The translations under genes and the position numbers were made by a program. DNA of 40,622 nt from a virus (lineage: Duplodnaviria > Heunggongvirae > Uroviricota > Caudoviricetes): positions 1 to 40,622 of the IMG/VR virus record IMGVR_UViG_2671180275_000009. One strand, 5' to 3'. The notes under the pieces were generated by a model, which made no database searches, was not told where the DNA came from, and worked only from the letters and a program-made list of their open reading frames with translations. Shown piece after piece: positions 11,526 to 40,622 of the stretch. Within the stretch, counting starts at the first letter, position 1. Every line of letters begins with the position of its first letter.

Positions 11526-11951
11526 ATGGCAGAAACTCAGATGAGCATGTTTGGTGGTGACAGTGAGCAACTGCACGCCCTTATCGACCGCCTTGATGAC
11601 ATCCCTGATGATGTTCTCAAAAAGAACTGGCCGCGGACCCTGTCAGAACTGGTTGAAGTCACCGGCGCAGAACTTCAGCGTCAGGGGATTGAGCCGGTAC
11701 TGGCCGGCAAACTGGCACGCAAGGTGGCTGCGGCTCAGGCAGCCTATATGGGCGGACGGGGTTATTACCTGCCGGTCGGGGAATCTCTCTTTGCCGAGCT
11801 GCGAAACAATGAGATATTTTCGCGCTGGGACCGGGGCGAGAAAATTGAATCCCTTCGCCGCCATTACCGGATGTCAGAAACCCAGATTTATACCGTCATA
11901 CGCGAACAGCGCCGTCTGCATCTGGCAAGAACGCAACCGCCACTTTTCTGA
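11526..11951 (+). CDS. Mor/C-family transcription activator
   Basis: 141-aa ORF between gemA and lys with C-terminal HTH-like segment (RRHYRMSETQIYTVIREQRR); cannot assign Mor versus C. Confidence 0.6.
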   Translation: MAETQMSMFGGDSEQLHALIDRLDDIPDDVLKKNWPRTLSELVEVTGAELQRQGIEPVLAGKLARKVAAAQAAYMGGRGYYLPVGESLFAELRNNEIFSRWDRGEKIESLRRHYRMSETQIYTVIREQRRLHLARTQPPLF

Positions 11952-17838: not shown

Positions 17839-19147
17839 TCTGGGTTATGCCGCCACGCTTCCCTCAAAAGAGGCGGTGGCATACTTCCGCGCCAAAGGGG
17901 CGCATATCAGCTGGAACTGGTTCGAAACAGACGCGGATGTTCATGCCCGTTCATTCACGGCGGCAAAAGTGGCACGCCTGGACGTACTGACCACACTACA
18001 GGCGGAAGTGCAGCGTGCTGTTGATGAGGGGATTTCACAGAAAGCATTTATTCGCACGCTGACACCCCGCCTGCAAAAGCTGGGATGGTGGGGAAAACAG
18101 ATTGTGGTGGACAGTGCCGGTAACGCGGAAGAAGTGCAGCTGGGCAGTCCCCGCCGTCTGGCGCTGATTTACAACGTGAACACCCGTGTGGCTTACAATG
18201 CCGGGCGTTACACGCAGATGATGAACAACACGGACACGCATCCGTTCTGGCAGTATGTGGCGGTGATGGACAGCCGCACCCGCCCGGCACATTCCGCCTT
18301 TAACGGGCTGGTATTCCGCTATGACGATCCGTTCTGGAATACACACTACCCGCCCAATGGCTGGAACTGCCGCTGCCGTGTCCGGCCATTATCTCAGGCC
18401 CGTCTGGATGCAATGGGGTTATCCGTTTCATCCGGTCAGGATCATCTCTCCACCCGCAATGTTGAGGCTGGCGTGGATAAGCAGACCGGAGAAGTCAGAG
18501 AAATGCCGGTGACCACATATTCAGATGGCACCAGAACCATGACACCGGATGTGGGCTGGTCATATAACCCCGGTTCGGCGGCGTTCGGCACAGACCAGGC
18601 GCTGATCCGTAAACTGATCGAGGTGAAAAGCCCGGCGTTACGGGAAATGGTGGTTCAGGAGATGAACAACAGCCCGGAGCGGCAGCTGGCGTTCCGCATC
18701 TGGGCAAAAAACATCATGAAGACCCGGCGAGGTGGTCACGATATCCGCACGCTGGGCTTTATGACCGAAAGTATTGCGCAGGCGGTGGAAAGCCGGACGG
18801 GAACGCCACCGGCCCGCCTGCTGGCGATGAGCGGTAAAAATGTGCTCCATGCGGACAGCGTGAAACATCAGAATGACGGCATTGCCCTGACGCCGGAGGA
18901 TTTCGGGCGATTACCGGCAATGCTGGCCGCGCCTGATGCCGTGCTGTGGGATCATGTCCATCAGAATCTGCTTTACATCACTGAAACCCGTGACGGAACG
19001 GCAAAGATTGCCGTCAATGCGCCTTATAGTGTGAAACGTCAGCCGGATAAGCTGGATGTGGTGATTAATGCCTACAGAGTCAAAAAGGAGGCATTACTTG
19101 ATGATCTGCGCGGTGGAAAGCTGGAATTACTGGAGGGTGAATTGTAG
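17822..19147 (+). CDS. Head morphogenesis protein (Mu F / gp30-like)
   Basis: 441-aa ORF after portal, order-based assignment. Confidence 0.65.
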   Translation: MAQGIDLGYAATLPSKEAVAYFRAKGAHISWNWFETDADVHARSFTAAKVARLDVLTTLQAEVQRAVDEGISQKAFIRTLTPRLQKLGWWGKQIVVDSAGNAEEVQLGSPRRLALIYNVNTRVAYNAGRYTQMMNNTDTHPFWQYVAVMDSRTRPAHSAFNGLVFRYDDPFWNTHYPPNGWNCRCRVRPLSQARLDAMGLSVSSGQDHLSTRNVEAGVDKQTGEVREMPVTTYSDGTRTMTPDVGWSYNPGSAAFGTDQALIRKLIEVKSPALREMVVQEMNNSPERQLAFRIWAKNIMKTRRGGHDIRTLGFMTESIAQAVESRTGTPPARLLAMSGKNVLHADSVKHQNDGIALTPEDFGRLPAMLAAPDAVLWDHVHQNLLYITETRDGTAKIAVNAPYSVKRQPDKLDVVINAYRVKKEALLDDLRGGKLELLEGEL

Positions 19148-19231
19148 GTCGGTGGCGGGGGTCGAACCCGCATAAACATCCCTCAGGAAAAAACCATCAG
19201 GCGCCGCTTTACCAGTTAAGAGTACACCGAC
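19148..19231 (-). ncRNA. tRNA-like structure (acceptor stem plus T-arm) between the F-like and G-like genes
   Basis: On the minus strand: GTCGGTG ... GCGGG TTCGACC CCCGC CACCGAC, i.e. a perfect 7-bp acceptor stem and 5-bp T-stem with a TTCGA-type loop; D and anticodon arms are not canonical. Confidence 0.25.
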
Positions 19232-19269: not shown

Positions 19270-19743
19270 ATGTCATCCATTGATGCCGCTGTCGTTGTTG
19301 ACGTTACGCGTCTCCAGCGGGTGTTTGCCCGGCTTCAGTTTGTGGGGGGCGGAAAAGACCTGGCCCGCAGTGTGGCGTCCAGCCTTCTGTCATCCTCAGA
19401 AATGGCGTTTGAACAGGAAAAAGAGCCGGACGGCGAACGCTGGCATGACTGGTCAGATCCTTACCGCAAGTGGCGTACCCGTAAGGGATACACGCCCGGC
19501 AAAATCCTGACGCTGAACGGCGATCTGGCCCGCCGCCTGACCACGGATTATGGCGATACCTGGGCGCTGATTGGATCAAATGAACCTTATGCAGCCATTC
19601 ATCAGTGGGGTGGCCTGCCTGGTATGCCACCGGGACTGGCAGCCATTGGCGCACGTCCGTATATGGGCTTTGATGAGGTGGCTGAACAGGAGATCATGGA
19701 CGAAATCAGAAAACGCTTTAAAAAGGCCACAGAAACGCCTTAA
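19270..19743 (+). CDS. Mu G (gp31)-like virion protein
   Basis: 157-aa ORF in the Mu G position. Confidence 0.5.
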   Translation: MSSIDAAVVVDVTRLQRVFARLQFVGGGKDLARSVASSLLSSSEMAFEQEKEPDGERWHDWSDPYRKWRTRKGYTPGKILTLNGDLARRLTTDYGDTWALIGSNEPYAAIHQWGGLPGMPPGLAAIGARPYMGFDEVAEQEIMDEIRKRFKKATETP

Positions 19744-34951: not shown

Positions 34952-35050
34952 TGATAAAAACAGGAATAATACTATCGCTATATACGGACAGGGGTTGTCT
35001 GAGATAACGCATATATCAGGCGCTGCCTGCCGTACGCCATGAGCCGTTAA

Positions 35051-35422
35051 TTAAATACTTGCAGCGGATACCCAATTCCCATTAATACAATATTGTATCT
35101 GTCTGTAATAAACACGGTCATCACCACCACGCATTTCCCAGTCTCCGTCAGTCTTAAAACCGGTAATCACATTTCCTGATGACAGGGAGTAATTATATTC
35201 CAGTACGCCGCTTAATGCCTGCGCTCCCAGTCTTACCCCTGTAACATAACGCTGATTGGCCGTTGATTCCGGCATTCCTGACGTAATGTTTATATCCCGC
35301 GTCCCGTCGAAAGGAACACCATTAATATTTCTTGGGGTGGCGAGTCTGTTTGCTGCCACGGCGGTTCCCCCCGATGGCAGGGCATCAGCGGCCTTATTTA
35401 CCGTTTCCCGTAAACCGAGGTT
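35051..35422 (-). CDS. Alternative tail fibre C-terminal exon with no start of its own
   Basis: Reading frame opens immediately after a TGA inside the right gix-like site and encodes NLGLRETVNKAADALPSGGTAVAANRLATPRNINGVPFDGTRDINITSGM..., homologous to S residues from the crossover point. Confidence 0.65.
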   Translation of the reverse strand, partial: NLGLRETVNKAADALPSGGTAVAANRLATPRNINGVPFDGTRDINITSGMPESTANQRYVTGVRLGAQALSGVLEYNYSLSSGNVITGFKTDGDWEMRGGDDRVYYRQIQYCINGNWVSAASI

Positions 35423-35430
35423 TCAGGGAT
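35405..35430 (+). other. gix/hix-like 26-bp recombination site, right (inverted relative to left)
   Basis: TTCCCGTAAACC GA GGTTTCAGGGAT; its reverse complement shares the half-site GGTTTACGGGAA and centre TC with the left site. Confidence 0.6.
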
Positions 35431-35484
35431 GCCGTATATCTGCTTTAAAAAGCATTTCCACCTCTTTTTAAGGAAGGTAAATAC

Positions 35485-36045
35485 ATGCTGATTGGCTATA
35501 TACGCGTATCAACAAATGACCAGAACACAGGTTTACAAAGAAATGCGCTGGAATGTGCAGGATGTGAGCAGATTTTTGAAGACAAAATGAGTGGTAAAAC
35601 GACGCAGCGGCCGGGACTGAAGCGGGCACTGAAGAAACTAAAACCCGGCGACACACTGATGGTCTGGAAACTGGACAGGCTGGGGCGCAGTATGCGCCAC
35701 CTTGTTGCGCTGACAGATGAATTACAGCAACAGGGGATAAATTTTCGTAGTCTTACTGACAACATTGATACGTCAACCCCCATGGGGCGCTTCTTTTTTC
35801 ACATAATGGGTGCGCTGGCAGAAATGGAGCGTGAATTGATTGTCGAACGGACACGGGCTGGTCTTGCTGCTGCCCGTGAAAGGGGACGAACCGGCGGCAG
35901 ACCCCGTCGTCTCACGCAGGAACAATACGAGCAGGTCGGGCGTTTACTGGCCGGGGGTGTCAGCCGAAGACAGGTGGCACTTATTTTTGATATCGGCCTT
36001 TCAACCCTTTATCGTTATTATCCTGCGAGCGTTTCGGAAAAATAA
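35485..36045 (+). CDS. gin: Gin/Hin/Cin-family serine DNA invertase
   Basis: 186-aa ORF starting MLIGYIRVSTNDQNTGLQRNAL (catalytic Ser motif) with C-terminal HTH; adjacent to invertible segment. Confidence 0.85.
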   Translation: MLIGYIRVSTNDQNTGLQRNALECAGCEQIFEDKMSGKTTQRPGLKRALKKLKPGDTLMVWKLDRLGRSMRHLVALTDELQQQGINFRSLTDNIDTSTPMGRFFFHIMGALAEMERELIVERTRAGLAAARERGRTGGRPRRLTQEQYEQVGRLLAGGVSRRQVALIFDIGLSTLYRYYPASVSEK

Positions 36046-36144
36046 GACGCTCTCTTTGTTGGGCCTTTACTGAATTAACGCAAAATGGCGTTTATCGGTC
36101 TGTGGATATGATAATTCTGTTTATTCAGGAACAGGCTGATTATT

Positions 36145-38184
36145 ATGACGTCCAAATGGGTTCAACTATCATCAATGCCCGGAAACTTTACTGTTAAAGT
36201 TTCCGGTGGTACAGCGGCATTTCTTGAGGCTCCCTTTCCTCCGGCCGAAACAAAAGGAGGAATGACATTTGCTGACTGTCTCATCAGTTTTAATACACGG
36301 GATTGCCTGTGGGTAAGGCCAGTATCCGGTGATCCGAGCGTGGAAATTACCGGTGCGGGTATTGGTGCTGTCATTCCGTTAAGTGCTGATGTTGCCGGTA
36401 CTGCTGAACCGTCAGACTGGGATAATGCTGAAACACATACCCGTCCGTCAGGAAATGAAACTGCTTCCAGCTCCCCTTCCTGGTATTACGTGGTGGTTCT
36501 TGCTGGTCAGTCAAACGGGATGGCCTACGGTGAAGGTCTGCCGCTGCCGGAGACATATGACCGCCCCGAACCGCGTATTATGCAGTTAGCCCGTCGCAGT
36601 ACAGTCACGCCGGGAGGTAAAGCCTGTCAGTATAACGACATCATTCTGGCCGACCACTGTCTGCATGATGTGCAGGATATGAGTGGAAAAAATCACCCGA
36701 AAGCGGATGTGGCTAAAGGGCAATATGGCACCGTGGGTCAGGGGCTTCACATTGCCAAAAAACTGCTGCCGTTTATTCCGGCAGATGCGGGGATTCTGCT
36801 GGTTCCCTGCTGCCGTGGTGGTTCTGCATTCACGGCGGGTGCTGACGGCACGTACAGTGACAGCACGGGTGCTTCAGAGGACTCAGCCCGCTGGGGTGTG
36901 GATAAGCCGCTGTATAAGGACTTAATCAGCCGGACAAAAGCGGCACTGGCGAAGAACCCGAAAAACCGCCTGCTTGCTGTGGTGTGGATGCAGGGCGAGT
37001 TTGATATTGATGCGAAGCCGACGGAGCATTCCGCGCTGTTTCTGGCGATGGTGGAAAAATTCCGCGCAGACCTGGCTGAACAGGCGGAACAGTGTACCGG
37101 TGGCAGTGCTGCTGGCGTTCCGTGGATTTGTGGCGATACCACGTATTTCTGGAAACAGAAAAACGAACAGGCATACCAGGCAATCTATGACGGCTACAAA
37201 AATAAAACAGATAAAAACATTCATTTCGTCCCATTAATGACAGATGAAAATGGCGCGAATGTACCCACCAACAATCCGACAGAAGACCCGGATATTGAAT
37301 CCATTGGTTATTACGGCTCAACGTGGCGTAACAGTGCCGCCACCTGGACATCTGCGGGCCGGGCCAGCCATTTCAGTTCATGGGCACGTCGTGGGATTAT
37401 TTCCGACCGTCTGGCCACGGCTGTTCTGACTCATGCAGGGCGAACCACAGTAAAAGCCGATGTTCCATCTTCTGAAACTGAAGCACCAGTGCCGTCACCT
37501 TCAGAAACTGAAGCAGTAACCACAACACTGCTGTCTTACCGTGTCAGTGAGTCAGAAGGAAATCTGAAAGCCCAGGGCTGGGAGCCGGCTGGCGGTAAAG
37601 CTGAAATTATCAGTGATGCAGGAGGCACAGGTGGTAAGGCAATGAAACTGACCAAGGAAACAGGTAAATCATCCTGGTATCTGGATCATGATGCCGGTAC
37701 TGGTGCTGAACTGCTGAAAAATGGTGGTTTAATCAGTTGTCGTTTTAAAGTACCTGGCGACCTGGTGGCAAACCAGTATGTCATGGCGCTTTACTGGCCG
37801 GTTTCCTCTCTGCCGCAGGGTGTCACCCTGACAGGGGATGCAGGGAATAATCTGCTGGCATCGTTCTACATCCAGACAGACGCAAAAGACCTGAATGTGA
37901 TGCACCACAATGCAAAAGTGGCAACAAATAACCAGAAACTGGGAACCTTTGGTGTATTTGATAATGAATGGCATACGCTGGCCTTCCGTTTTGCAGGAAA
38001 TAACAGCCTTCAGGTTATTCCGGTTATTGATGGTCAGGATGGTGCCGCGTTTACCCTGACGCAGTCACCAGTAGGAACTTTCCCGGTGGACAAACTCCGC
38101 GTAACGGATATCACCAAAAATGCAACTTACCCGGTGCTGATTGACAGCATTGTGGTGGAAGTGAAAAAAGCGGTAACAGAATAA
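36145..38184 (+). CDS. Putative carbohydrate O-acetylesterase (SGNH/SASA family, NanS-like) with additional N- and C-terminal domains
   Basis: 679-aa ORF with YYVVVLAGQSNGMAYGEG (GQSN active-site motif of sialate O-acetylesterase-type hydrolases); GATAAT -10-like element upstream. Confidence 0.55.
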   Translation: MTSKWVQLSSMPGNFTVKVSGGTAAFLEAPFPPAETKGGMTFADCLISFNTRDCLWVRPVSGDPSVEITGAGIGAVIPLSADVAGTAEPSDWDNAETHTRPSGNETASSSPSWYYVVVLAGQSNGMAYGEGLPLPETYDRPEPRIMQLARRSTVTPGGKACQYNDIILADHCLHDVQDMSGKNHPKADVAKGQYGTVGQGLHIAKKLLPFIPADAGILLVPCCRGGSAFTAGADGTYSDSTGASEDSARWGVDKPLYKDLISRTKAALAKNPKNRLLAVVWMQGEFDIDAKPTEHSALFLAMVEKFRADLAEQAEQCTGGSAAGVPWICGDTTYFWKQKNEQAYQAIYDGYKNKTDKNIHFVPLMTDENGANVPTNNPTEDPDIESIGYYGSTWRNSAATWTSAGRASHFSSWARRGIISDRLATAVLTHAGRTTVKADVPSSETEAPVPSPSETEAVTTTLLSYRVSESEGNLKAQGWEPAGGKAEIISDAGGTGGKAMKLTKETGKSSWYLDHDAGTGAELLKNGGLISCRFKVPGDLVANQYVMALYWPVSSLPQGVTLTGDAGNNLLASFYIQTDAKDLNVMHHNAKVATNNQKLGTFGVFDNEWHTLAFRFAGNNSLQVIPVIDGQDGAAFTLTQSPVGTFPVDKLRVTDITKNATYPVLIDSIVVEVKKAVTE

Positions 38185-38333
38185 AAAAAATCCCGCCGGT
38201 CATGATATGGCTGGCGGGAGCTACCTAACCCATAAAGGAAAATAAAAATACTCCCGAAGGAGTAGTTACCAGTCACTTCGTCATGTTTTTACCCGATAAC
38301 GAATTATGTAGTCAATATCAAAGGTAAGGTTAT

Positions 38334-38516
38334 ATGACATTCGTTCATACAATGCTGCTTTATTTCTGCGCTGTGGTCAGTGCGTTATATCTGGTGAGCG
38401 GCGGTTATAAGGTCATCAGAAATTATATTCGCCGCAAAATTGATGACGCAGCAGCCGAAAAGCTCAGTAAAACAGCACAGGCACCATCATCCCCAAACGA
38501 CCCGACCCCGCTCTGA
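38334..38516 (+). CDS. Small membrane protein (60 aa)
   Basis: Hydrophobic N-terminus (MLLYFCAVVSALYLVSGG); AAGGTAAGG RBS. Confidence 0.4.
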   Translation: MTFVHTMLLYFCAVVSALYLVSGGYKVIRNYIRRKIDDAAAEKLSKTAQAPSSPNDPTPL

Positions 38517-38551
38517 TAACGGGGCAATATACCTGCAAAAGGAGAATATTC

Positions 38552-38797
38552 ATGCCAGAGATTAAAGGCACGGTTACTGAAGAGCTTGTCAAACAGGCAC
38601 TTTATTCTGAAGAAGTGAACCGCGTGCTGAAGGCGCAGGTTCGCAAGGATTTTGAGGCACAAATCGACGCATATGTTGATGAAGTGCTGGCCCGAATGGT
38701 TGGCCGTTCTCCGGCTGAAAACAGCACGGAAAATGCTCCTCAACCCGTAGAGCAACCAGAGCCGGTTCAGCCCGGAACTGACGGTACTATGATGTAA
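38552..38797 (+). CDS. Hypothetical protein (81 aa)
   Basis: AAGGAG RBS 8 nt upstream of ATG. Confidence 0.45.
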   Translation: MPEIKGTVTEELVKQALYSEEVNRVLKAQVRKDFEAQIDAYVDEVLARMVGRSPAENSTENAPQPVEQPEPVQPGTDGTMM

Positions 38798-39229
38798 CAA
38801 TACCGACCTGCAGGTTTCCCTGCCGGGTGAATTTGTTAATGCACGTTTTGTGTATTTTCCCTCTGGGGAGAACAGGCAGGGCATATCAGCATCCTGAAAC
38901 AGGAAGCATTTTTTGGTTTGTATGTCTTGCCATTTTGAGATCGAGAACGGCGATAGATGAGCTGTAAGGGAGTCTTACAGGCAGGGTAAACAGGCTCTTT
39001 ATCCATGATAAAGATCTCCTTTTTATGCATCTCTGCTTTACAGGAGACCGGGGAATATCATAGGATACGCCACGAGCTCGAAGTAAAGCATTGATGCAAA
39101 ATTGTCTAAATCGGCCCAGAATAGTTCGCGCTATCTGGGTCGCCCTTTATGTATGTAGTATCCCATTGATTTGAAACATACTACATATACGCACAATCCT
39201 ACCTTCACTGTATAAAAAGTCAATAAAAT

Positions 39230-39368
39230 GATCATTTTATGATCGTTTTCACCACCTAACTCTTCGTTTTCTTTAAGTAAGTAATCACCGCCCTGAATCA
39301 TTGTTGATGACTTTTCAATCTATTTGTTGTATCAATTAAACAAACCGAATCGATCGTTTTTGTCGATC
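39230..39368. promoter_or_regulatory. GATC-rich region upstream of com (candidate Dam-methylation-sensitive regulatory region, by analogy with Mu mom)
   Basis: GATC at 39230, 39241, 39352 and 39365 within 140 bp of AT-rich intergenic DNA. Confidence 0.4.
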
Positions 39369-39415
39369 GATTGCATGAGAAAGGCATCAACAACAAAGCA
39401 GGAGGTTATGCGGCC

Positions 39416-39601
39416 ATGTATCGAAACATACGGTGCCGACACTGCAATAAGCTACTGGCACGGGCCAGTTTCAGTTATCTGGAAGTAAAATGTCCGCGCT
39501 GCAAAACCCTCAATCAAATCACATCTCAGAGCGCCACAGAGCACCCCACATACACAAGGAAATCCTGCCGTGGGGAACAAGAAACATTACTTTCAGTCTG
39601 A
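39416..39601 (+). CDS. com: Com-like zinc-finger translational activator
   Basis: MYRNIRCRHCNKLLARASFSYLEVKCPRCK closely resembles my recollection of Mu Com (IRCKNCNKLL...IEIRCPRCK); GGAGG RBS; 3' end overlaps the next gene. Confidence 0.8.
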   Translation: MYRNIRCRHCNKLLARASFSYLEVKCPRCKTLNQITSQSATEHPTYTRKSCRGEQETLLSV

Positions 39602-40622
39602 TAAGTCACTAACCTATGGTTCAGTATGCAGTGGTATTGAAGCTGCGACAGTAGCCTGGAGCAATCTTGGCTGGAAAGCCAGATGGTTCAGTGAAATAGA
39701 GGACTTCCCGTCAACACTTCTTTCATATCGCTGGCCCCATATACCAAATCTTGGTGATATGGCTTTGCTTGCGCCTCGTATCAGGGATGGGCTTATTGAA
39801 GCACCAGATATTCTTGTAGGTGGAACTCCGTGTCAGGCATTCAGTATGTCAGGCAAACGAAAAGGCCTTTCAGATCCACGGGGGCAGTTAACACTGTCTT
39901 TTGTTGAACTGGCGAATCAGATAGATACCGTTCGGGCATCGCTCAATAAATCCCCCTCAATAATCGTATGGGAAAACGTCACAGGAGTTTTAAGTAGCCA
40001 TGACAATGCATTCGGTCATTTTCTTGGTGCGCTGGCCGGAGCAGGTTGCGCATTACAGCCAGCAAGGAAAAGATGGGCAAACGCTGGTGTTGTGTCTGGA
40101 CCATCGCGTATCGTCGCCTGGCGAGTACTTGATGCCCAATATTTCGGAGTCGCCCAGGCTCGCAGAAGAGTGTTTGTTGTGGCAAGTGCTGGAAAAAGGC
40201 TCGATCCCGGAAAGGTATTATTTGAGTTCCCGCCTGTGTCGCAGGGCGATAAAAACTATTACGGAAAGAAGAAAAAATCCGAATCCCTTCTTGATCAAGG
40301 CATTGAAGGAAAATTGCACCGATATTGCCTTGAAGCATTGCCAAAACGAACAGGCACAGTAATAGCTGGCTATAACGGAACAACTAACCAGGACATGACT
40401 ATGTCTGGTGGGCTCATAGTTGAAAGAGCGCCATATTCAAGGGTTCGTAGGTTGACGCCAACCGAATGCGAGAGGCTACAAGGTTTTCCCGATGGATATA
40501 CAGATATTCCATGGAAAAATTCATCTCCAGCTCATCGTTATAAGGCCATTGGAAATTCAATGCCTGTACCGGTCATGAAATGGATTGGTCGAAGAATACA
40601 GGAAGCGTTAAACGAAGTTTAA
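39570..40622 (+). CDS. C5-cytosine DNA methyltransferase (GTG start overlapping com)
   Basis: Motifs GGTPCQAFS (catalytic PCQ), IVWENV, QARRRVF and IGNSMPVPV in canonical order; stop codon is the last triplet of the window. Confidence 0.85.
   Translation: MGNKKHYFQSDKSLTYGSVCSGIEAATVAWSNLGWKARWFSEIEDFPSTLLSYRWPHIPNLGDMALLAPRIRDGLIEAPDILVGGTPCQAFSMSGKRKGLSDPRGQLTLSFVELANQIDTVRASLNKSPSIIVWENVTGVLSSHDNAFGHFLGALAGAGCALQPARKRWANAGVVSGPSRIVAWRVLDAQYFGVAQARRRVFVVASAGKRLDPGKVLFEFPPVSQGDKNYYGKKKKSESLLDQGIEGKLHRYCLEALPKRTGTVIAGYNGTTNQDMTMSGGLIVERAPYSRVRRLTPTECERLQGFPDGYTDIPWKNSSPAHRYKAIGNSMPVPVMKWIGRRIQEALNEV

Follow-up and report, generated by a model that had tools for sequence, protein, structure and literature searches.

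Few cargo genes in the prophages of enterohaemorrhagic Escherichia coli have a demonstrated metabolic role; those of the NanS-p esterases are among them. The enzymes of EDL933 and O104:H4 have been reported to be active on 5-N-acetyl-9-O-acetylneuraminic acid (Neu5,9Ac2) and on mucin, and growth on Neu5,9Ac2 is enabled by NanS-p paralogues (PMC8065619). In the chromosomal NanS, catalysis depends on Ser19 and His301, with an oxyanion hole made up of Gln18 and a glycine, and a catalytic aspartate is absent (PMC9063846). In phage phi24B, the DUF1737 domain of the NanS-p homologue gp84 attaches to the hexons of the capsid, and the enzyme is subsequently released by cleavage; most DUF1737 proteins consist of that single domain (bioRxiv 10.64898/2026.04.10.717836). 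A survey from 2023 recorded nanS-p also in prophages that are not of the Shiga toxin (Stx) type (PMC10462455). Here, a member of this family is described from a Mu-like prophage, in which it is located between the invertase gene gin and the gene com. The DNA analysed, referred to as the window, is the whole stretch of 40,622 nucleotides (nt) of IMG/VR record IMGVR_UViG_2671180275_000009 (Caudoviricetes).

The esterase of the window belongs to a known enzyme family and carries a new N-terminal variant. The enzyme itself is ordinary, and the parts of interest are the exchange of its putative anchor and an initial clue to the function of phrog_4772, a family of hypothetical proteins. The same enzyme body in an unrelated transposable phage, behind another N-terminal domain, also offers a direct handle on the function of the N-terminal module. 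Among the papers of the literature library consulted, whose coverage leaves out the primary NanS-p papers PMC5038012 and PMC5038053, none pairs Mu-like phages with an acetylesterase for E. coli, describes an alternative N-terminal domain or contains the term 'DUF6645'.

The esterase gene and its relatives

The preliminary description of this DNA, made from the sequence alone, named an open reading frame (ORF) of 679 amino acids (aa) with a GQSN esterase motif and additional N- and C-terminal regions, placed between gin and com where Mu has nothing. All of this was borne out. The span given there started at 36046, the first base past the gin stop, and so combined the intergenic gap of 99 nt with the ORF listed in Table 1. 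GQSN was found at aa 121-124 (Ser123 codon 36511-36513), and aa 1-108 and aa 429-679 flanked the catalytic part. RefSeq gives the same coding sequence in a 100%-identical E. coli genome (WP_074017391.1). The names in public annotation are 'DUF6645 domain-containing protein', the one RefSeq gives and the only one used by the Prokaryotic Genome Annotation Pipeline (PGAP), and 'sialate O-acetylesterase'. The ORF is genuine and not a product of chance, given its length and the E values of 1e-111 to 1e-119 against solved structures. Met40 was considered as an alternative start, with AAGGAGG just 1 nt upstream, and was rejected, since the conserved N-terminal domain already begins at aa 3-5.

Pfam assigned SASA (PF03629) to aa 116-312 (E 5.5e-12; 46.2 bits against a cut-off of 24.8), which upholds the SASA-type assignment made earlier, and DUF6645 (PF20350) to aa 524-642 (E 2.1e-68). 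No further Pfam family was matched at E<=1. DUF1737 (PF08410), which had been expected, was thus absent, and the N-terminal domain belongs to a different family. The structure of NanS/YjhS (3PT5) matched aa 104-428 (E 9.5e-119), and that of a NanS-p C-terminal domain (6YP6) matched aa 459-674 (E 4.3e-111), so that the C-terminal domain, DUF6645, is already known and its structure solved. In PHROGs, phrog_143 was matched over aa 62-677. By tblastn, 340 phage records covered at least 80% of the protein; nearly all were Stx-converting or other lambdoid phages, with an identity of 73-78%, and a pairwise alignment with the 645-aa NanS-p of phage P27 gave 73% over aa 65-673. The proposed relation to the NanS-like esterases of lambdoid prophages was accordingly found to be a close one.

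Gln122, Ser123 and His409 aligned with Gln18, Ser19 and His301 of NanS, and all three were conserved, as they also were in two Salmonella homologues described below (L009 and L025). His409 (codon 37369-37371) is part of the motif SHFS at aa 408-411. Of the Ser/His/Asp triad of the preliminary description, the Ser and the His were thus found, whereas the Asp is absent, which is normal for NanS; its absence is a trait of the family and not a defect. The catalytic domain was aligned with NanS end to end, at an identity judged by eye to be about 60-65%. NanS is a single-domain protein of the nan regulon, with a chain of 337 residues in 3PT5, and has neither the N-terminal nor the lectin-like domain of the window protein. 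No signal peptide was identified in the esterase, and a reading as a secreted enzyme was rejected because no hydrophobic stretch was found at the N-terminus. Judged by its sequence, the gene is an intact member of the known NanS-p family of prophage sialic-acid O-acetylesterases.

DNA similarity to lambdoid nanS-p extended from 36483 to 38173 (77-81%), and tblastx placed the similarity between about 36460 and 38178; in terms of the protein, it starts at aa 106-113 and lasts to the end; no alignable lambdoid NanS-p sequence was present before about aa 106 in these comparisons. The DUF1378 ORF behind the esterase was 48-53% identical at the aa level to its counterpart behind nanS-p in Stx2 phages, and the DUF826 ORF was 45% identical to the corresponding 81-aa ORF of the Stx2 phage Stx2_14040. 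In Stx phages the gene order is stx2A, stx2B, nanS-p, DUF1378 ORF, DUF826 ORF and holin. By these alignments, a block of three genes is common to two unrelated phage types, and just the first approximately 105 codons of the esterase differ.

The window protein thus resembles lambdoid NanS-p in its combination of a SASA/SGNH type II domain with DUF6645, in the layout with two linkers, in the DUF1378 and DUF826 genes behind it and in having no signal peptide, but an unrelated all-beta domain takes the place of DUF1737. The location differs as well. The lambdoid gene is found between stx/Q and the lysis genes, downstream of late-region genes, whereas the window gene is located in a transposable Mu-like myovirus, between gin and com, and is preceded by the motif that it has in common with Mu-type late operons. 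The lambdoid late region is under Q/pR' control. The region is otherwise similar to the right end of Mu, with an invertible fibre segment, gin, and a com that overlaps a DNA-modification gene. In Mu, however, gin ends at 35673 and com starts at 35768, leaving a gene-free gap of 94 nt, whereas 3.3 kilobases (kb) are inserted here, and a C5 cytosine methyltransferase replaces mom.

The N-terminal domain and the phrog_4772 family

When the first 109 aa of the esterase were compared with 50,697 phage records, only two Mu-like phages transposed into Stx phages were matched, and a word-indexed search with the same segment returned just partial E. coli proteins. An exhaustive HMMER search of aa 1-100 against 1.84 billion representatives gave five matches. 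One of these, P0007, is encoded downstream of the invertase in a Salmonella Mu-like prophage and was 28% identical over aa 2-80, followed by a linker and GQSN. Scanning IMG/VR with P0007 identified two further loci. The Mu-like phage L009 encodes a 784-aa protein of the same layout as the window esterase. It is located downstream of a tail fibre with its assembly gene, and Com and a C5 methyltransferase follow it. In L010, a 78-aa ORF with the N-terminal domain is followed by a 703-aa esterase ORF. IMG/VR scans with the N-terminal domains of L009 and L010 recovered only themselves, and a scan of genome contigs with P0007 gave no confirmed match. Fusion of the domain with the esterase was found in three Mu-like lineages (the window, L008 and L009), and among the Mu-like lineages of E. 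coli and Salmonella the domain remains conserved at identities as low as 28%.

A profile of the Mu-like N-terminal domains retrieved approximately 25 clusters of stand-alone Salmonella proteins of 77-80 aa, and it retrieved the phrog_4772-type family at E 1e-7 to 1e-30. The window domain itself (aa 3-68) matched positions 11-77 of the 79 positions of the phrog_4772 profile weakly (E 0.004), and the bridging sequences matched it far more strongly (2e-18 for P0012 and 2.8e-41 for PhaxI gp046). The core members of phrog_4772 are 77-aa proteins of Ackermannviridae, such as PhaxI. W5, W56 and R58 were invariant in the alignment of the family. The stand-alone proteins end at about aa 75 of the window protein, with a conserved Trp as their last residue, and the N-terminal domain was therefore delimited as aa 1-75. 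An AlphaFold2 model based on this alignment (predicted local distance difference test, pLDDT, 80, and 87-93 for aa 10-70) was all-beta with six strands. DUF1737 consists of one helix and three strands (bioRxiv 10.64898/2026.04.10.717836), which argues that the two domains are unrelated. The phrog_4772 proteins of Ackermannviridae (such as PhaxI gp046) and of Salmonella P2-like prophages, homologous to aa 1-75, are always followed by a variable 'cargo' gene and stand alone, whereas domain and esterase form one fused protein in the window, in L008 and in L009, joined in the window by a linker of about 33 aa.

The phi24B preprint proposes motifs containing SSP as sites of self-cleavage in both linkers of gp84 (bioRxiv 10.64898/2026.04.10.717836). 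We noticed that Linker 1 of the window protein ends in ASSSP (aa 107-111; 36463-36477), directly before the catalytic domain. In Linker 2, PSS and SPS are present and SSP is absent.

The genomic company of the stand-alone proteins was most informative in L025, a Salmonella P2-like locus with the order V, W, J, I, H (fibre), G (assembly), 78-aa protein, 701-aa esterase, FI (sheath) and FII (tube). The 78-aa gene overlaps the stop of G, and its 701-aa neighbour consists of SASA and DUF6645 and is 48% identical to the window esterase. What is one fused protein in Mu-like phages is hence encoded in L025 by two genes side by side, a classic signature of functional partners. In other P2-like prophages, the small phrog_4772 protein follows a fibre invertase or a glycosyltransferase and precedes either a 183-aa ILEI-domain protein matching 'tail protein' PHROGs or a 178-aa protein, after which a DUF1353 gene ('tail assembly chaperone' PHROG) is found. 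It is located between a fibre assembly gene and a 332-aa protein with an assembly gene of its own in another prophage, and in yet another between an 823-aa tail fibre with its assembly gene on one side and an internal virion protein and tail tip on the other. The PhaxI protein precedes a 172-aa 'tail needle knob' protein in a non-structural region; the region of the Ackermannviridae homologue is near tRNAs and a DNA polymerase gene. These arrangements have in common that the small protein immediately precedes a beta-rich 'cargo' of variable kind, and tail-fibre genes are usually nearby.

A trio of a small phrog_4772 protein, a variable cargo and often DUF1353 (phrog_1158) was recurrent in P2-like, Mu-like and other phages (L014 8001-9179, L017 8001-10391, L022 6001-7339, L023 6001-7322, L025 5138-7495 and L026 6965-7726). 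As cargo, SASA esterases, ILEI-domain proteins, needle-knob-like proteins and proteins without a family were observed, and an overlap between the small gene and the stop of the tail-fibre assembly gene was seen in three loci. In the Salmonella P2-like locus L023 (2762-5510), a Macro-domain protein is encoded between the tail fibre and its assembly gene, and a GT4 glycosyltransferase gene is located on the opposite strand immediately before the phrog_4772 gene.

Distribution, expression and probable function

A megablast search with 35400-39700 gave a 100% match in E. coli DETEC-S792. The region is there part of a complete Mu-like prophage inserted in a hydratase gene beside ybhI. Its early and head genes comprise a repressor region, Mu transposase, AAA+ B, Gam, a Mor-family activator, lysozyme, portal, head and a gpT-type major head protein; these are followed by sheath, tube, tape measure, baseplate, an invertible tail-fibre segment, invertase, the esterase, Com and a DNA methyltransferase. 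In 168 of 5,426 complete E. coli genomes (approximately 3%), many of them O157:H7 and O103, the coverage of 35400-39700 was 80% or more, with up to 10 matching places per genome, and many genomes of E. coli that produce Shiga toxin (STEC) carry several nanS-p copies. One more nanS-p copy is thus to be counted in about 3% of complete E. coli genomes, O157:H7 included. Although the serotypes differ, the nucleotide identity of the stretch was 97-100%. Sp18 is a Mu-like prophage of O157 Sakai (PMC2669165), and on the strength of the O157:H7 matches the prophage of the window is taken to be of the Sp18 type.

When the gin flank was joined to the com flank and used as a query, the two were adjacent in none of the 5,426 E. 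coli genomes at megablast sensitivity. Since no relative without the cassette was found among these genomes, the esterase gene is fixed, and not sporadic, in this prophage lineage. The N-terminal and catalytic domains of the Mu-like alleles were 97-100% identical. The lectin-like domain was only 79-85% identical in one allele, that of a Mu-like phage inside the Stx2c phage JNE082796 (L005), with the low identity in the stretch corresponding to window 37495-38094 and a value of 97-99% for the other two domains of this allele. This drop in one domain next to two near-identical ones suggests that the lectin-like domain has been exchanged among nanS-p copies.

The gap upstream of the esterase was compared with the regions before the late operons, and a 15-nt motif was found in this way (Table 1). 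Exact matches to the pattern CTGAnnTnnCGCAA numbered three in the window, at 11948, 19870 and 36070 on the + strand, a count that was reached in 0 of 100 shuffles. The first match overlaps the stop of the Mor/C-family activator gene (11526-11951), 75 nt before lys, and the second is located 50 nt before the head protease gene I. In L009, the sole match in 19.4 kb, with up to one mismatch allowed, was exact and was located 64 nt before the ATG of the fused esterase. Hexamers resembling a -10 box followed the motif after 22-23 nt at all four sites (TACGCT for lys, TATGCT for I, TATGAT for the esterase and CAGAAT for L009), each with an A in position 2 and a T in position 6. As the motif is shared with the lys and I operons, it points to expression late in phage development rather than to an autonomous moron promoter, and a late, activator-dependent promoter is the candidate from which the esterase would be transcribed. 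A copy of the motif with one mismatch, CTGAGATAACGCATA, was observed inside the invertible tail-fibre segment (34999-35013, + strand), between the minus-strand assembly gene and a fibre fragment.

The hairpins reported behind the gene in the preliminary description were indeed present, and the + strand RNA folds at -30.8 kcal/mol (z = -4.7). Their U-runs, however, are on the minus strand, and instead of ending the esterase transcript they look like terminators for leftward transcription. For the same reason, readthrough into DUF1378 and DUF826 would be expected. A scan for + strand terminators between the esterase and DUF1378/DUF826 found none, nor was a terminator found between gin and the esterase, which are on the same strand. 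On the other side of the hairpins is a frameshifted minus-strand gene, and they are oriented to stop transcription coming from there.

The explanation that we favour, and consider probable, is that the gene encodes an active NanS-p-type sialate 9-O-acetylesterase, expressed late and released by lysis, and that this gene belongs to the regular gene content of the Mu-like prophages of the Sp18 type in E. coli. The protein consists of three modules on flexible, Ser/Thr/Pro-rich linkers: a cupin-like N-terminal domain, an SGNH type II catalytic domain and a lectin-like jelly roll. During late lytic growth, the phage activator would turn the gene on together with the lysis, head and tail operons. 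The enzyme would then be made alongside the virion proteins and be freed into the gut lumen at lysis, possibly already bound to a phage structure through its N-terminal domain. Because the esterase has no signal peptide, lysis would be needed for it to reach its substrate. The lectin-like domain may bring the enzyme to glycans, and the Ser123-His409 dyad, with an oxyanion hole of Gln122 and a Gly, would de-O-acetylate Neu5,9Ac2 and the O-acetylated glycans of mucin. The esterase body, DUF1378 and DUF826 share ancestry with the block downstream of stx in lambdoid Stx phages. In parallel with DUF1737 of phi24B, the most likely function of the N-terminal domain is to link the enzyme to a phage structure or to oligomerise it; the spread of its family over unrelated particles and its cupin fold would equally allow it to oligomerise or chaperone its cargo.

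Several points weigh against this explanation. What the enzyme acts on is extrapolated from paralogues of 73-78% identity. The count of three motif sites is partly circular, since the pattern was derived from those sites, and the occurrence in L009 is the only independent test of the motif. In a generic sigma-70 scan, sites were no commoner than in shuffles and none was notable in 36046-36144, which also runs counter to the earlier suggestion that the gene has a promoter of its own; what was found instead is the motif common to the late operons. Plys and PI of Mu are reportedly C-dependent late promoters, as described by Margolin et al. in 1989. The regions of these two promoters share with the window motif only a related core, TCCCGCAC, at a different spacing. 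Plys is located in the gap between C and lys (PMC9239132). With two mismatches allowed, the window motif was not enriched in Mu (13 matches against 12 expected). Finally, mitomycin C failed to induce Sp18 in O157 Sakai (PMC2669165), and lytic release may for that reason be rare.

Table 1. Positions in the window of the esterase gene, its parts, its flanking signals and the adjacent genes.
Feature	Position	Strand	Remarks
gin, Gin-type invertase (Resolvase + HTH_7)	35485-36045	+	Directly upstream of the esterase gene
Motif CTGAATTAACGCAAA, candidate binding site of the late activator	36070-36084	+	15 nt; 75 nt before the esterase ATG
Putative -10-like element TATGATAAT	36107-36115	+	22 nt past the motif
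NanS-p-family O-acetylesterase, coding sequence	36145-38184	+	ATG start; 679 aa; stop included
N-terminal domain, aa 1-75	36145-36369	+	Small, all-beta, cupin-like; phrog_4772 family; in place of DUF1737
Linker 1, aa 76-108	36370-36468	+	Ala/Ser/Thr/Pro-rich; terminates in ASSSP; pLDDT <50 beyond aa 80
SASA/SGNH type II catalytic domain, aa 109-428	36469-37428	+	PF03629; 3PT5 match
Linker 2, aa 429-458	37429-37518	+	Thr/Pro/Ser/Glu-rich; flanked by the two PDB matches
C-terminal lectin-like jelly-roll domain (DUF6645), aa 459-674	37519-38166	+	PF20350; PDB 6YP6
Hairpin 1, 13-bp stem	38191-38219		A8 before it on the + strand, hence U8 after it on the - strand
Hairpin 2, TACTCC-CGAA-GGAGTA	38249-38264		T-run on the minus strand
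DUF1378 ORF, 60 aa	38334-38516	+	PF07125, E 1.2e-38; second gene of the block shared with Stx phages
DUF826 ORF, 81 aa	38552-38797	+	PF05696, E 3.2e-15; third gene of the shared block
Com gene (Zn_ribbon_Com)	39371-39601		Downstream of the esterase block

Alternative roles and neighbouring features

An extension of the favoured explanation, compatible with it, is that the esterase is held on the Mu-like particle by its phrog_4772-type domain, either in the region of tail fibre and baseplate or at the head, and that the virion carries the enzyme into mucus. We regard this as possible, though on balance somewhat doubtful. DUF1737 of phi24B anchors its enzyme to the capsid, and exactly that module is exchanged in the window while the layout of linker and enzyme is kept. 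Like DUF1737, the phrog_4772 family consists mostly of small stand-alone proteins, and these are encoded downstream of tail-fibre genes, after the assembly gene, whose stop is often overlapped, or after the invertase, in P2-like, Mu-like and SU10-adaptor contexts (for example in L010, L022 and L025). The genes after them include ones that match 'tail protein', 'tail needle knob' and 'tail assembly chaperone' (DUF1353) PHROGs, SASA domains were found within minor tail proteins of actinophages, and a motif resembling a late promoter would suit a structural role. Against display on the virion stands the Ackermannviridae homologue in its non-structural region, and the site after the tail-fibre genes is a classic moron hot spot of P2-like phages.

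More speculatively, phrog_4772 could be a second, structurally unrelated family of phage-particle adaptors that tethers exchangeable glycan-binding or glycan-modifying cargo in contractile-tailed phages, a generalisation that we put forward only tentatively. The adaptor role would span Mu-like, P2-like and possibly Ackermannviridae phages, as DUF1737 serves Stx phages of the phi24B type. If this were true, the display of mucin-modifying enzymes on virions would have arisen at least twice, with the anchor swapped before the same enzyme.

The gene could alternatively act in lysogenic conversion, as a moron that is expressed from the prophage in the lysogen irrespective of phage development and feeds its host on Neu5,9Ac2, with an N-terminal domain of no phage-related role. 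Growth on this substrate is permitted by NanS-p paralogues (PMC8065619), the many STEC genomes with several nanS-p copies would fit such a benefit, and, as gin is located immediately before the esterase gene on the same strand and a terminator was not found in the interval, weak read-through from gin is possible in the lysogen. Relative to Mu, the gene is indeed extra and cargo-like. The preliminary description had called the arrangement typical of a moron, and on this it did not hold up, for neither a sigma-70 promoter above chance level nor a coding-strand terminator was found, and the gene was never absent from its lineage in the 5,426 genomes. The same constancy speaks against conversion, as do the substrate being reached only through lysis, the motif common to the lys and I operons, which suggests late expression, and the conservation of the N-terminal domain down to 28% identity, as a useless appendage would not persist in this way. 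We consider conversion doubtful.

It is less probable still that the esterase is a receptor-modifying tail enzyme, acting during adsorption or after release on O-acetylated glycans of the bacterial surface (O-antigen, polysialic acid or O-antigens containing sialic acid) and not on host mucin. SGNH esterase domains are known in tail proteins, and the Salmonella P2-like and Mu-like homologues are located in or beside tail-fibre modules. The possibility has been raised for NanS-p in a review (PMC8065619). The closest characterised relatives, however, act on free and mucin-bound Neu5,9Ac2, and the enzyme that the catalytic domain resembles, NanS, is a sialate esterase. That the gene is an inactive remnant of some past recombination with a lambdoid prophage is extremely improbable, for although the block was clearly swapped between unrelated phage types and a frameshifted ORF follows just downstream, the 679-aa frame is intact and of the same length in all alleles, the catalytic residues are conserved and the nucleotide identity between serotypes is 97-100%.

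Among the neighbouring features, a hypothetical gene annotated by PGAP as frameshifted is located on the minus strand at 38836-39301, between the DUF826 ORF and the com promoter region. Its pieces are 64 aa (Cys-rich, CxxC...CxxC) and 56 aa long, with no Pfam match for either. At about 19147-19231 on the minus strand, between the head morphogenesis gene and the ORF at 19270-19743, RefSeq places a 'tRNA-OTHER' at the matching position of an identical prophage (L003, 20900-20984); ARAGORN detected no tRNA in the whole window.

The first approximately 1400 nt of the window are host DNA, the 5' part of the hydratase gene split by the prophage, and the window ends at 40622 exactly with the methyltransferase stop, so that the right end of the phage is beyond it. 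A length difference of 18 nt to the otherwise identical prophage of DETEC-S792 is located between the activator gene (11526) and the esterase (36145). At 39371-40622, Com is followed by a C5 cytosine DNA methyltransferase of 350 aa in place of Mom, starting with a GTG at 39570 and overlapping com by 32 nt. The Sp18-type prophages of E. coli mostly have Mom there and the C5 enzyme in about 8 genomes, and the same pair of Com and C5 methyltransferase was observed in the Salmonella Mu-like phage L009 (13628-14837). Translational control of the Com type may thus have been transferred to a different DNA-modification enzyme.

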